From contig OZ253446.1 in assembly GCA_965261245.1 (NCBI GenBank), positions 1,233,300-1,297,299 of the forward strand: DNA of 64,000 nt, in the 5' to 3' direction. The notes beneath the pieces were generated by a model that saw only the letters and a program-made list of their open reading frames with translations, ran no database searches and was not told the origin of the DNA. Below, one piece after another: positions 17,726 through 38,132 of the stretch (its first letter is position 1; each line of letters opens with the position of its first letter). Both the position numbers and the translations under genes were made by a program. This stretch comes from Spirochaetia bacterium (lineage in GTDB: Bacteria > Spirochaetota > Spirochaetia > G963692905).

Positions 17726-19075
17726 TTACTGGCATATGCTGCTACTGCATGAGCCACTGACACAATCGAAATTGTTAAAGCAAGCACCTCCTGTCTCACG
17801 AAGGCACGTGCCAATACTACTGCAAGCTAGCGAGGTATTGCAATGGTCGTTAAGCCGGCAAATACTTCCGATCATGCCAGTGGTGCTCGTGCATATTAGA
17901 TTGGAAGTCACGGTGGCACATATCAACGGGCTGGTGCATTGAATATCCCTTTGGCAAGCACCTCCGGACACAACAGTACCCGCCTGACTGCATACCTGGC
18001 TACCAGACGCTCCGGTACATATCAAACTACCAACACATGCATCGTCGGTAGTACATGTAGCCCCGGCCGCTATCCCGCACGCACCGCTCCCGCATACCAG
18101 GGCACCGTCACAGTGGTCATCGTTACCGCACACACTCCCGCCCAGGCCAGTGCCTGCCGTACTGCATACCTGACTACCGGTTGCACCGGTGCATATCAAC
18201 GGGTCGGTACATTGGTCATCGTCACTGCACGCATCATCAGCCATGCCGGCAGAGCATGTACCAGACCCACAGGTCAAACTACCGGCGCAATCGTCGTTGA
18301 CGCTGCAAGCAGCACCGGCTATTGCCCCGCATGCTCCGTTGCCGCAAATCAGCGGGCTGGTACAGTGGTCATTGGTGCCGCACACACTTCCAGTGGAACC
18401 GGTGCCTGCCTGGCTGCATACCTGACTACCGGATGCACCGGTGCATATCAAATCACCAGCACATGCGTCATCGGCAGTACATGTACCGCCGGCAGCTATT
18501 CCGCACGCACCGTTTCCGCACACTAGCGGGCTGGTACAATGGCTATCGATACCGCAAACACTCCCGTTCGCACCGGTGCCTGCTTGACTGCATACCTGAC
18601 TACCAGACGCGCCCGTACATATCAGCGCGCCGGCGCATTGGTCATCGACACTGCATGCATTGCCCGCCGCTATGCCGCATATACTATCACTGCCGCAAAT
18701 CAACGGCGCGGTGCACTCATCATTGGCATTACACATATCCCCGACATTGCCCCCAGGGCCGCCAGAGCAGGCCCCGATTTCACACATCAGGCCATCCGCG
18801 CAATGGCTATCGATACCGCACAAGGTACCGACCATGCCGTTACCGGCTTGCCTGCATAGCTTGTTATCAGATGCTCCCGCGCATATCAGACCGCTGACAC
18901 ATTCGTTATCCACCGTACAGGCATCACCTTCGGCTACGTTACTCCTGCCGCCTCCTCCATTGCCGCTGGTAGCGGCATCACAGCCGGCTATAACCAGGGG
19001 CAGGGCAATGATTGCACATACGGCAATTATTGCACTACATACACCAATTCGCGGTGTGCGTATTATATTATACAT
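17726..19075 (-). CDS. Cys-rich tandem-repeat lipoprotein (8-Cys modules of about 55 aa)
   Basis: Lipobox LVIAGC. About eight repeats of C-x5-C-x5-C-x8-C..C-x5-C-x5-C-x4-C (e.g. CTADDACAGDLICTGASGSQVCSQAGTGSTGSVCGTNDHCTSPLICGNGAC). Confidence 0.75.
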   Translation of the reverse strand: MYNIIRTPRIGVCSAIIAVCAIIALPLVIAGCDAATSGNGGGGRSNVAEGDACTVDNECVSGLICAGASDNKLCRQAGNGMVGTLCGIDSHCADGLMCEIGACSGGPGGNVGDMCNANDECTAPLICGSDSICGIAAGNACSVDDQCAGALICTGASGSQVCSQAGTGANGSVCGIDSHCTSPLVCGNGACGIAAGGTCTADDACAGDLICTGASGSQVCSQAGTGSTGSVCGTNDHCTSPLICGNGACGAIAGAACSVNDDCAGSLTCGSGTCSAGMADDACSDDDQCTDPLICTGATGSQVCSTAGTGLGGSVCGNDDHCDGALVCGSGACGIAAGATCTTDDACVGSLICTGASGSQVCSQAGTVVSGGACQRDIQCTSPLICATVTSNLICTSTTGMIGSICRLNDHCNTSLACSSIGTCLRETGGACFNNFDCVSGSCSSSICQ

Positions 19076-19239
19076 AATTGTATACCTCTCTTTGTATATT
19101 TAGAAAATTTTTCTTTATAGTTGACAACGAACCGGACGGCCGTGATGTATGAATAATAGTTCTGGCAGCACTGCTGAGATGAGAGAAATATATTTTTAGT
19201 GAAAAAAGCGGTGTATTTAGTACACTATTTTTACTGACT

Positions 19240-19260
19240 GGGGGGGGGGGGGGGGGGGGG
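19240..19260. repeat. Homopolymer G21 (C21 on the coding strand of the downstream gene)
   Basis: Counted directly. Ends 164 nt upstream of ATG 19075 and lies downstream of the promoter at 19365-19394. Confidence 0.95.
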
Positions 19261-19364
19261 TAAGTAGTGGTATAATAAGGACATAAAGCGATAATTTTAT
19301 AGCATTATACACGCTTTCCAAACGTGATGCGGTGGCTTTACACGCTACACTACTCACAATATAT

Positions 19365-19394
19365 ATTATAGCATACATTTTCGGGGGCTGTCAA
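19365..19394 (-). promoter_or_regulatory. Consensus promoter TTGACA-N18-TGc-TATAAT for the Cys-rich lipoprotein gene (about 285-nt leader)
   Basis: Perfect -35 and -10 hexamers on the minus strand. Confidence 0.55.
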
Positions 19395-35805: not shown

Positions 35806-35913
35806 ATTTCTCTCTCCTTATTTTCATTTTAACACAACAAAACGGATACACCAATGCCGAATGCGCCCCGCCGGCTTGATGCCGGCACTGCTGCTATTCG
35901 GCCGGTTATGGGA

Positions 35914-36904
35914 TTACTGGCATACAAAACTGCTACACATCCCACTGACACAATCGCTATTATTACCGCAAGCAGTGCCGGCCGTCCCATCGGTGCATAG
36001 ATTGCGGATACAACCATAATCGCACTGGCTACTGCTACTACAAGGGCTACCGGCACTGCCATCGGTTGCCGTGCATACCTGACTACCGGACACATTGACA
36101 CATATCAAATTAGTATCACAATGACTACTTCTACTGCAAACACTACCCGCACTGCCATCACCGGCGGCCGTGCATACATCATTGCGGGACACACGCACAC
36201 ATATCAAATTAGTATCACAATCGTTAACATCGAAACACGCACTGCCCGCACTGCCATCACCGGCGACCGTGCATACAAAACGATCGGACACAGCGGCACA
36301 TATCAAACCAGTAGCACACTGGCCGACAGCGCAAGCACCGCCGGCGACTATCTTGCCGCATGCGCCGGCATTACATACTAGCGGACTGCTACAATGGCTA
36401 TGGGTACCGCATACACTATCGGCCATACCATCACCGGCGGCACTGCATACCTGGCTACCGGTTGCACCGGTGCATATCAAATCAGTATCACAATCACCAT
36501 CAGCAACACAAGCACCGCCGGCGGCTACCTTGCCGCATACTCCGCTACCGCACACTAGCGGACTGCTACAATGGCTATCGATACCGCATACACTATCGGC
36601 CATACCATCACCGGCGGCACTGCATACTCGGCTACCGGCTGCACCGGTGCATATCAAATCAGTATCACAATCACCATCAGCAACACAAGCACCGCCGGCA
36701 GGTGTTTTGCTGACGCTGCCATTACCCCCGCTACTGCTGCTGCCAGTATCACAACCGGCCAAAATCATCACAACCGCCAGCACTCCGGCCGTTGCTATTA
36801 CGCCGCGTAGGCGTTTCCTACTCGCTAAAGAGCGATAATCTCTCTCTCTCTCTCTCTCTCTCTCTCTCTCTCTCTGCGAGTGTATTAAACAATTGTATAT
36901 TCAT
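35914..36904 (-). pseudogene. Cys-rich tandem-repeat lipoprotein, out of frame at a 5' (GA)18 tract (phase-OFF candidate)
   Basis: ATG 36904 plus 10 codons are identical to the neighbouring paralogue. A(GA)18 then shifts the frame. The body ORF 35914..36783 carries the lipobox and 8-Cys modules. Total length is 991 nt, not divisible by 3. Confidence 0.75.
36839..36875. repeat. Dinucleotide repeat (TC)18T, equal to A(GA)18 on the coding strand
   Basis: Counted directly from the sequence. Confidence 0.95.
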
Positions 36905-37037
36905 ATTTCTCTCTCCTTATTTTTATGTTAACACAACGATATGGGAGCGTCAAGTGAATTAGTAGAGAAATGTGCCTTTTGACGCCGTGGTTGCAGCAAC
37001 ACCCTCCCTCTCCGGCGTTTTGTTTGTCTTGTTCTCT

Positions 37038-38132
37038 TTACGGTGCAGTTGTCATGGTGCCGCCCGCTGCTACCCATAGCCCGTTGGCGTAATGGATATC
37101 CAGGAGTCCAGCGCTCACGTTACTTGTCTGTGCCGTCCATGCGGCACCGGTTACGCTGGTGGTTATGTCCCCCGCTCCCCCTCCAACCGCTACCCATAGG
37201 GCATTGGCATAGTGGATGTCAAATAACCCGCCGGTTACATTGCTTTCCTGCGGTGCCCATGTGCTGCCGTCTGCGCTGGTGGTTATGTCCCCGTCTTCCC
37301 CGACCGCTACCCATAGGTTATTGGCGTAGTATACGGCTTCCAGTTTACCGCTCACATTGCTTGTCTGCACCGCCCATGCGGTACCGTCTGTGCTGGTTGT
37401 TATGGCGCCGCTGGATACTGTATTTCCCATGTCGGTTACGCTGGCTTGACCAACCGCTACCCATGAATTATTGGCATAGTGGACGTCGTCCAGTGAGGTA
37501 TTTACATTGCTTGTCTGCGCCGTCCATGCGGTGCCGTTTGCACTGGTTGTTATGACTCCGTTCTCCCCAACCGCTACCCATAGGGTATTGGCATAGTGGA
37601 CGGCAAGCAGGGAGTCGCTCACGTTGCTTGTCTGCGCTGTCCATGCGGTGCCGTTTGCACTGGTGATTATGCCGCCGTCTGCTCCCACCGCTACCCATAG
37701 ATTGTTGGCATAGTGGACATCGGATAGGTTGCCGGTTACATTGCTGGTTTGTTCCATCCATTCGGTGCCGTCTGCACTGGTGATTACGTCTCCGCCGTCA
37801 CCAACCGTTACCCATAGGTTATTGGCATAATGGACGTCGCGCAGGTGACCGCTTGCATTGCTCATCTGCTGCTTCCATTCGGTGCCGTTTGCACTGGTGG
37901 TGATGCCTCCTGTGTTTATTGTGGTCCCCGTGTTGGTGACTCCCACCGCTACCCATAGGTTATTGGCATAATGGACGGCAGTTAGCCCGCCGGTCACACC
38001 GCTTACCCGTGCCGTCCATGTGGTGCCGGTTGGATCCTCGCTTGGTTGCTCGTCTGGGCAACCGATTAGTAGTATGCTGCTAATTATTATGGCCAGTAGC
38101 AAAGCCGCCGTTTTTATAAGGTATTTACTCAT
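37038..38132 (-). CDS. BNR/Asp-box beta-propeller lipoprotein
   Basis: Lipobox LLIGC. About 8 repeats of W..QTSNV...L.DVHYANNLWVAVG..G.ITTSA(D/N)GT.W. Start trimmed to ATG 38132. Confidence 0.75.
   Translation of the reverse strand: MSKYLIKTAALLLAIIISSILLIGCPDEQPSEDPTGTTWTARVSGVTGGLTAVHYANNLWVAVGVTNTGTTINTGGITTSANGTEWKQQMSNASGHLRDVHYANNLWVTVGDGGDVITSADGTEWMEQTSNVTGNLSDVHYANNLWVAVGADGGIITSANGTAWTAQTSNVSDSLLAVHYANTLWVAVGENGVITTSANGTAWTAQTSNVNTSLDDVHYANNSWVAVGQASVTDMGNTVSSGAITTSTDGTAWAVQTSNVSGKLEAVYYANNLWVAVGEDGDITTSADGSTWAPQESNVTGGLFDIHYANALWVAVGGGAGDITTSVTGAAWTAQTSNVSAGLLDIHYANGLWVAAGGTMTTAP

Follow-up and report, generated by a model that had tools for sequence, protein, structure and literature searches.

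Propeller and cysteine-rich lipoprotein genes of an uncultured spirochaete as probable parts of a modular stalk-and-head repertoire with predicted translational repeat switches

Why do genes for a β-propeller lipoprotein and for cysteine-rich repeat lipoproteins stand next to each other twice within one stretch of a spirochaetal genome? The stretch analyzed here, referred to as the window, comprises 64,000 nucleotides (positions 1,233,300-1,297,299) of the 2.34-Mb single-contig assembly of a Spirochaetia bacterium, whose Fmt protein is 36-40% identical to its nearest named matches (Treponema and other Spirochaetota proteins), which indicates a deep-branching, uncultured spirochaete. On the minus strand, propeller 1 is followed by the cysteine-rich gene Cys1 at locus 1, and propeller 2 is followed by Cys2 and then Cys3 at locus 2 (Table 1). 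This order had been recognized in a preliminary description of the stretch, which proposed that the recurrent pairing forms a two-component surface module under variable expression. The analysis reported here suggests a different answer, namely that the two loci are probably part of a large, lineage-specific, modular stalk-and-head lipoprotein repertoire in which the rods would be translationally switched. Duplication and domain shuffling within a single stalk-and-head family would best account for the adjacency, and joint function of the neighboring proteins is not required.

The evidence that carries this reading lies largely outside the window. A six-frame census of the genome identified 18 propeller-only genes, 35 Cys-only open reading frames (ORFs), and nine single-ORF fusions in which a lipobox is followed by a Cys stalk and then by a propeller. 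With these nine fusions, and with fused relatives elsewhere, the link between the two modules reaches far beyond the pair of loci at which it was first noticed, and the fusions make the association much stronger than adjacency alone would. The order of the parts, on the other hand, is not a conserved feature, as both the fusions and a further locus at genome position 1311443, where the genes are arranged as Cys, propeller, Cys, place Cys modules before the propeller. In the fusions, the last Cys unit passes directly into the first blade with no cap between them. Cys1 and the stalk of the fusion gene at genome position 2116726 are collinear (best tblastn segment up to 58% identical), the signal peptides of these two proteins are closely related, and signal peptides and leaders are common across the lipoprotein families. 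Collagen-like linkers occur in eight of the 18 propeller-only genes. At the further locus (genome 1311443-1315069), three adjoining genes encode a Cys rod, a propeller with a collagen linker, and a short Cys rod with a collagen linker; all three share a near-identical signal peptide start (MKKSIVMMAVLL) and the same leaderless promoter, and the arrangement looks like one cassette duplicated before different bodies.

Relatives elsewhere show the same combination, a propeller being present in 6 of the 150 best Cys-profile matches and a Cys module in 5 of 120 propeller matches, one of these five coming from the present genome. Several lipoproteins of the sister genus (G002) consist of the same propeller (ending ..TAP) fused to a 4-Cys repeat of another type, which is ∼38 amino acids (aa) long and has no Pfam match (Table 1). 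The Cys family was absent from searches of two genomes of the same family and of 300 genomes of the class, and a scan of genome contigs with Cys3 returned two distant proteobacterial matches only, both in metagenome-assembled genomes and uninformative on pairing.

All five window proteins have the sequence features of lipoproteins, with a positive n-region, a hydrophobic core, and a lipobox ending in Cys, and are predicted to be lipidated. The five lipoboxes named in the preliminary description are thus present, although that of Cys2 can be reached only after frame correction. The mature part of Cys1 contains 56 Cys in 14 units, and those of Cys2 and Cys3 contain 36 Cys in nine units each. The unit has the form C-x5-C-x5-C-x(4 or 8)-C, and the final one is a shorter cap (..CSSxxCQ). 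Long and short units alternate and thereby create a super-repeat of 174-177 nucleotides (nt) encoding 8 Cys in ∼58 aa, to which the 8-Cys module of ∼55 aa described earlier corresponds, whereas the basic unit has four Cys and comes in two alternating types. The internal tandem repeats of the Cys genes measure 96-177 nt and are 76-92% alike. The three genes also agree at their 3′ ends, where, as had been noted, the last codons and ∼35 nt past the stop align. A 19-nt core of this flank (TGCCAGTAATCCCATAACC) marks the 3′ end of 10 Cys-only genes genome-wide (≤3 mismatches), which makes it a feature of the family and not one specific to these two loci; a short GC hairpin follows the block in most copies.

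The Cys module had been regarded as belonging to no named family, yet Cys1 (32.5 bits) and Cys2 (25.0 bits) exceed the gathering cut-off of Pfam DUF7107 (PF23416; 24.6 bits), with Cys3 (21.4 bits) falling below it. Across the whole genome, DUF7107 has 62 matches at an expectation value (E) ≤0.01, 10 of them above the cut-off alone or together with neighboring matches. On Dickkopf_N (PF04706), the window proteins stay below the cut-off of 25 bits (Cys1 24.9, Cys3 22.2, and Cys2 14.6 bits). With relatives retrieved by the family profile, scores rise to 106 bits (DUF7107) and 103 bits (Dickkopf_N), and since these relatives pass the latter model, Dickkopf_N is a neighboring family of which the window proteins are not formal members. 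Among 1.84 billion proteins, 1,054 representatives match the Cys family profile at E ≤0.001; the module's nearest Atlas clusters consist of repeat proteins with DUF7107 and Dickkopf_N, commonest in Myxococcota. None of the five proteins could be assigned to a usable NCBIfam family, and nothing was found in the literature on Dickkopf-like spirochaete lipoproteins or on DUF7107.

An AlphaFold2 model of mature Cys3 (mean predicted local distance difference test score, pLDDT, 83) shows a string of small hairpin-plus-turn units. Its best, weak match in Foldseek was the N-terminal region of Dkk4 (E 0.05, probability 0.91, 56 columns), and VIA-align matched the rod weakly to the second cysteine-rich domain (CRD2) of DKK1 (Z 3.4, root-mean-square deviation 3.3 over 50 residues), with knottins also among the weak fold matches. 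A profile search of Protein Data Bank sequences with the Cys family likewise returned DKK1 weakly, at E 0.009. On this model, the Cys proteins may have the shape of disulfide-braced rods. DUF7107 scores, Cys spacing, and weak fold matches agree in likening the module to Dickkopf_N/DUF7107 modules, of which the bacterial ones are mostly found in Myxococcota; here, in contrast to elsewhere, the units form tandem arrays of 9-27 and serve as stalks or free rods of spirochaete lipoproteins. The likeness to Dickkopf carries no implied Wnt or colipase biology. The sole exported thiol-disulfide oxidoreductase found is encoded elsewhere in the genome (1847476-1847976, minus strand; L025:1468-2328); it is DsbA-like, anchored in the membrane, and has a CPFC site.

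The propellers are 55% identical to each other. Mature propeller 2 was modeled by AlphaFold2 with a mean pLDDT of 95.8, a predicted template modeling score of 0.92, and 32 strands, and hence with eight four-stranded blades. Foldseek placed designed 8-bladed propellers first (template modeling score, TM, 0.69-0.79), followed by Ycf48 (TM 0.57-0.66, E ∼1e-9). Homologues of the propellers match PF25852 (DUF6242_C), PSII_BNR (PF14870), and HVO_0234-like models; PF25852 has precomputed matches on most of them and covers 58-99% of the members of the nearest Atlas clusters. The window propellers themselves pass no Pfam propeller model in a scan set that did not contain PF25852, and PF14870 (Ycf48/PSII_BNR) has no match at E ≤1 in the window proteins, with matches in 3 of 42 aligned homologues. 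The earlier label of “BNR propeller” needs to be replaced, as Pfam scans of the propellers gave no BNR-family match and the blades carry no canonical Asp-box (S-x-D-x-G-x-T-W), their own motif, (T/S)S-x-(D/N)-G-T-x-W, being one residue shorter. With this shorter motif and no Pfam propeller match, “Ycf48/DUF6242_C-like eight-bladed propeller” is the more exact description. The blade repeat is of the type seen in the photosystem II assembly factor Ycf48/HCF136 and in the DUF6242_C/HVO_0234/sortilin-Vps10 group, but in contrast to Ycf48 there are eight blades instead of seven, and the proteins are lipid-anchored and occur in ∼27 copies in a non-photosynthetic spirochaete. In propeller 1, a collagen-like G-X-Y linker of 11-12 triplets (∼20496-20597) follows the lipobox and scores 24.1 bits on Pfam Collagen against a cut-off of 27.2.

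The two kinds of gene also differ in how they appear to be expressed. A promoter-like site lies before each gene, and the genes form separate transcription units (Table 1). The propeller genes have neither a repeat tract nor a Shine-Dalgarno sequence, and a TATAAT-like box ending 6-7 nt before the ATG, again with no Shine-Dalgarno sequence, was seen in at least 11 of the 16 propeller-only genes examined. From the position of the -10 box 6 nt before the ATG and the missing Shine-Dalgarno sequence, propeller mRNAs are predicted to be leaderless. Each locus has its own repeat tract, as the preliminary description had stated; both tracts were found at the places given for them, and each is so placed that a change in its length alters a reading frame.

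At locus 2, the tract is the (GA)18.5 run, which falls within the Cys2 codons for the signal-peptide n-region. Translation from the ATG at 36904 yields MNIQLFNTLAE(RE)n and stops after 28 codons, and the Cys-rich body lies in an ORF (36783..35914) that is one base out of frame with this ATG; the tract would accordingly need a gain of 2 nt or a loss of 1 nt for Cys2 to be ON. Three lipoprotein genes with a (GA)n tract were counted in the genome (counts of these genes and of the C/G runs described below exclude the eukaryote-like first 226 kb of the assembly), and of these, Cys2 and the gene at 1409886 are OFF, while that at 1743063, a stalk-propeller fusion, is ON. A contingency locus is one in which the repeat sets the frame, and here (GA)18.5 puts Cys2 out of frame while paralogous tracts occur in mixed ON and OFF frames. 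Cys3 has the same 5′ end as Cys2 with only ∼(GA)4, and is in frame. Cys2 and Cys3 are tandem duplicates, one of which appears to carry a recently expanded contingency repeat, and actual switching of the rod genes by tract length would be expected from these frames.

At locus 1, the C21 homopolymer lies ∼100 nt downstream of the Cys1 leader promoter and would therefore be transcribed. A promoter-spacing role for C21 was rejected, the tract being ∼100 nt downstream of the only good promoters. A potential upstream ORF begins with a GTG 7 nt past the -10 box, its frame enters the C tract, and past the tract a frame continues open as far as a TAA overlapping codons 2-3 of Cys1. At C21 these two halves do not share a frame, and C19, C22, or C25 would join them. 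Genome-wide, 15 C/G runs of 18-25 nt were found, of which 14 precede a lipoprotein gene (three of them Cys-rich and the rest from other families) and the fifteenth precedes a Cys-rich ORF whose start position is ambiguous. A conserved leader of ∼160 nt, 61-89% identical to the window copy, is present at 12 of these 14 genes. Each of the 12 leaders has exactly one frame that runs from the tract without interruption until a stop codon located 1-11 nt beyond the A of the ATG, the other two being closed within ∼40 nt; shuffled leaders keep such a frame open in 4-15% of trials each. Upstream of the tract, one frame with a start codon is consistently open in these leaders, and the two halves of the upstream ORF are in frame in 4 of the 12. 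Rfam contains no known RNA family that matches the leaders. The upstream ORF would appear to encode a run of proline, and its termination at the start codon may be coupled to translation of the lipoprotein.

Upstream of a fusion gene at genome position 2048563-2050665, a decayed poly-C leader cassette (2050590-2050930) has its run broken into C4, C3, and C9 and could represent the switch in a locked state. No such cassette is present before the fusion at 2116726, whose promoter is a plain one.

Table 1. Coordinates of the features of the two loci (window positions) and of the sister-genus fusion proteins.
Feature	Position	Strand	Details
Shared 3′ flank of Cys1 (stop codon and ∼35 nt)	17691..17728	-	common to Cys2, Cys3, and seven other Cys-only genes
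Cys1, head-less rod lipoprotein, 449 aa	17726..19075	-	lipobox VIAGC; signal peptide MYNIIRTP..; 14 four-Cys units; cap ..CSSSICQ
Cys1 leader with potential upstream ORF	19068..19357	-	frame analysis
C21 homopolymer (G21 on the plus strand)	19240..19260	-	104 nt downstream of promoter; 164 nt upstream of Cys1 ATG
Cys1 leader promoter	19365..19394	-	TTGACA-18-TATAAT, 12/12; begins 40 nt past the propeller 1 stop
Propeller 1 lipoprotein gene	19434..20666	-	from translation: lipobox LITAC; 8-blade-type propeller, end ..STLP
Propeller 1 promoter-like site	20673..20702	-	TTGACG-18-TACAAT; -10 box ends 6 nt before ATG
Cys3 rod lipoprotein, 320 aa	34843..35805	-	lipobox ILAGC; in frame; 9 four-Cys units
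Cys2 rod lipoprotein gene, frame-shifted as assembled	35914..36904	-	lipobox ILAGC; 9 four-Cys units; cap ..CSSFVCQ
(GA)18.5 tract	36839..36875	-	in the Cys2 region coding for the signal-peptide n-region
Cys2 promoter-like site	36925..36953	-	TTGACG-17-TAACAT
Propeller 2 lipoprotein gene	37038..38132	-	lipobox LLIGC; short acidic linker; 8-bladed propeller, end ..TTAP
Propeller 2 promoter	38139..38167	-	consensus 12/12; -10 box ends 6 nt before ATG
Sister-genus (G002) propeller/4-Cys fusion lipoproteins	L007:431-2899; L008:828-2996; L009:769-1833		

Brought together, these features outline a modular scheme. A lipid anchor would be provided by one of a few interchangeable 5′ cassettes, each consisting of promoter, leader, and signal peptide. 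The optional stalk would be a rod of Dickkopf_N/DUF7107-like four-Cys units or a collagen-like G-X-Y run, or would be left out, and the optional head would be an 8-bladed Ycf48/DUF6242_C-like β-propeller here, with GLUG β-helices and other domains taking its place elsewhere. The window would represent the split form, in which a propeller is made from its own tract-free, probably leaderless promoter and is followed by one or two head-less rods with promoters of their own. The rod genes would switch at the level of translation through slipped-strand mispairing. For Cys2, the (GA)n run in the signal-peptide code would set the frame of the gene itself, which is OFF in the assembly; for Cys1, only every third tract length would let ribosomes read through to the start of the gene, and with C21 out of frame, low or no expression is predicted. 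The lipoproteins may be exposed at the surface or may face the periplasm, and their heads probably bind ligands.

Both predicted switches have parallels in other bacteria. In Helicobacter pylori, CT dinucleotide repeats lie in the signal-peptide coding region of oipA, and also of babA and sabA (PMC10564699). oipA is the closest known parallel of the Cys2 switch, since in both cases a dinucleotide repeat sits inside the signal-peptide code and its repeat number sets the frame and thereby the ON or OFF state. The switch predicted here differs in that it acts on spirochaete lipoproteins and not on β-barrel outer-membrane proteins, and in that its repeat is translated as (Arg-Glu)n within an n-region of unusual length. 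The pentamer repeats of the Neisseria opa genes provide a further parallel. Variable multigene lipoprotein families are also known from Mycoplasma, where Vlp, Vsa, and Vsp combine conserved 5′ cassettes of promoter and signal peptide with repetitive mature regions and ON/OFF switching by simple repeats. In these general traits the present families resemble them, but disulfide-rich modules and propellers stand here in place of charged linear repeats, and the switch lies in an upstream ORF and in signal-peptide code instead of in promoter poly-A or an inversion. Among spirochaetes, Treponema pallidum carries poly-G tracts of 7-11 G at tprE/G/J, tprL, and tp0126, located in the promoter or upstream of the transcription start and acting on transcription (PMC7864442). 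The likeness consists in G/C homopolymers before envelope-protein genes of a spirochaete that are read as phase switches; in the present genome, however, the runs comprise 18-25 C, and a consensus promoter lies ∼100 nt upstream of them. They fall within a conserved upstream ORF whose end coincides with the lipoprotein start codon, a position that suggests switching at the level of translation.

The pairing could instead reflect a true two-component module, in which the propeller and the rod, each with an anchor of its own, would interact on the cell surface and switching of the rod would alter the presentation or masking of the propeller. The fusions offer a Rosetta-stone-type hint of one assembly, both gene kinds adjoin at three loci, and a tract-free propeller next to a tract-bearing rod suits the idea of a fixed and a variable part. 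Yet the rod in the fusions is a covalent stalk between anchor and head, whereas the split proteins each possess their own anchor; the fusions lack the special cap (..CSSxxCQ) with which the free rods terminate; and most members are unpaired, with 15 of the 18 propeller-only genes and ∼30 Cys-only ORFs standing apart. Such a module is unlikely, if still credible, and modular domain shuffling of an anchor, an optional stalk, and an optional head fits the evidence at least as well. Conversely, adjacency might have no functional meaning at all if many lipoprotein families simply cluster in variable islands by tandem duplication. Locus 1 also adjoins three tandem paralogous genes, two of them with a GLUG motif, gene order varies between loci, and split adjacency exceeds chance only modestly, all of which would suit this explanation; nine fusions, fused relatives, and the parallel architecture of the sister genus nevertheless make an accidental link hard to accept, and it is judged clearly improbable.

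Two further explanations concern the rods themselves. The head-less Cys genes could mainly be a reservoir of stalk modules, with recombination between paralogues on the shared 5′ cassettes and 3′ flank reshuffling the number and sequence of units. That 5′ ends recur across families, that the 3′ flank is common to 10 genes, and that the genes contain the alike internal tandem repeats described above would favor such a role, which is nonetheless considered distinctly unlikely, the window genes being complete with promoters, start codons, and lipoboxes, unlike silent donor cassettes. An extremely improbable alternative is that the Cys-rich proteins are not structural rods but released toxin-like molecules or mimics of host signaling of the Dickkopf, colipase, or knottin type. 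It would draw on the slight resemblance, in fold and in sequence, to knottin toxins and to the cysteine-rich domains of Dickkopf. None of these matches is strong, however (Z up to 3.4; E 0.009-0.05), the modules form long tandem arrays behind a lipobox and act as stalks under heads, and the bacterial clusters closest to them are made up of repeat proteins and are commonest in Myxococcota.

Several observations weigh against the preferred reading of a switched, modular stalk-and-head repertoire. Split propeller/Cys adjacency occurs at three loci against 0.65 expected (P(≥3) ∼0.025, from a rough gene-order simulation assuming ∼1,900 gene slots) and is by itself modestly above chance. Maximum-likelihood analysis of 27 propeller domains gave a star-shaped tree, in which only 3 of 24 inner branches are supported and the labels are no more clustered than in shuffles, and it neither shows nor excludes repeated fusion or fission. 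With regard to the disulfide route, neither DsbB nor VKOR was found in the genome, which encodes ∼45 proteins with at least 10% Cys. Metagenome contigs searched with the exact pattern of the Cys2 5′ end and with the Cys alignment profile gave no match, and hence no strain-level DNA. Finally, the Cys1 ATG has a Shine-Dalgarno-like AGAGAGG of its own and may therefore be translated whatever the upstream ORF does, in which case the effect of the tract may be modulation and not a strict ON/OFF switch.

If the modular repertoire is as proposed, the kind of system is a familiar one, with variable lipoprotein families and repeat-driven switches, while its parts, namely Dickkopf_N/DUF7107 rods, 8-bladed Ycf48-like heads, and an upstream-ORF poly-C switch, are uncharacterized. 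For a deep-branching lineage of uncultured spirochaetes, it would supply an envelope parts list of anchor cassette, stalk, head, and switch. The uncharacterized bacterial DUF7107/Dickkopf_N modules would gain a likely structural function, that of a stalk or rod, and the 8-bladed Ycf48-like propeller, which has expanded to ∼27 copies, would probably act as the binding head. Two predicted translational repeat switches stand side by side, and the difference between (GA)4 in Cys3 and (GA)18.5 in Cys2 looks like a switch that arose recently. Should the organism be host-associated, these genes would be obvious candidates for variable antigens or adhesins. A more speculative and quite doubtful extension is a two-part coat, in which constitutive, membrane-close propellers are masked, spaced, or presented by independently switching head-less rods, one of the switches being a poly-proline-coding upstream ORF coupled to the start codon. 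If true, cells would show different combinations of the same heads, which would constitute a new way to vary the surface while leaving the binding protein unvaried.

A few features of the surrounding sequence remain to be described. Genome positions 1 to ∼226,000 have 40-42% GC, compared with 50-57% in the other sampled bins. Long ORFs are nearly missing there, and long (GA)n, (CT)n, and (AC)n microsatellites, reaching up to 67 units, number in the dozens; given this look of eukaryotic, possibly host, DNA, the assembly is probably chimeric. This ∼226-kb block lies outside the window, ∼1.0 Mb upstream of it. Within the window, the three tandem paralogous genes directly upstream of propeller 1 occupy 20778-26818 on the minus strand; the GLUG motif is found in those encoding 715 and 610 aa and not in the one encoding 648 aa, and a repeated 129-nt block is common to two of the three. 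Directly downstream of Cys3, a 21-nt tandem array at 34695-34771 comprises 3.7 copies with 96% matches.

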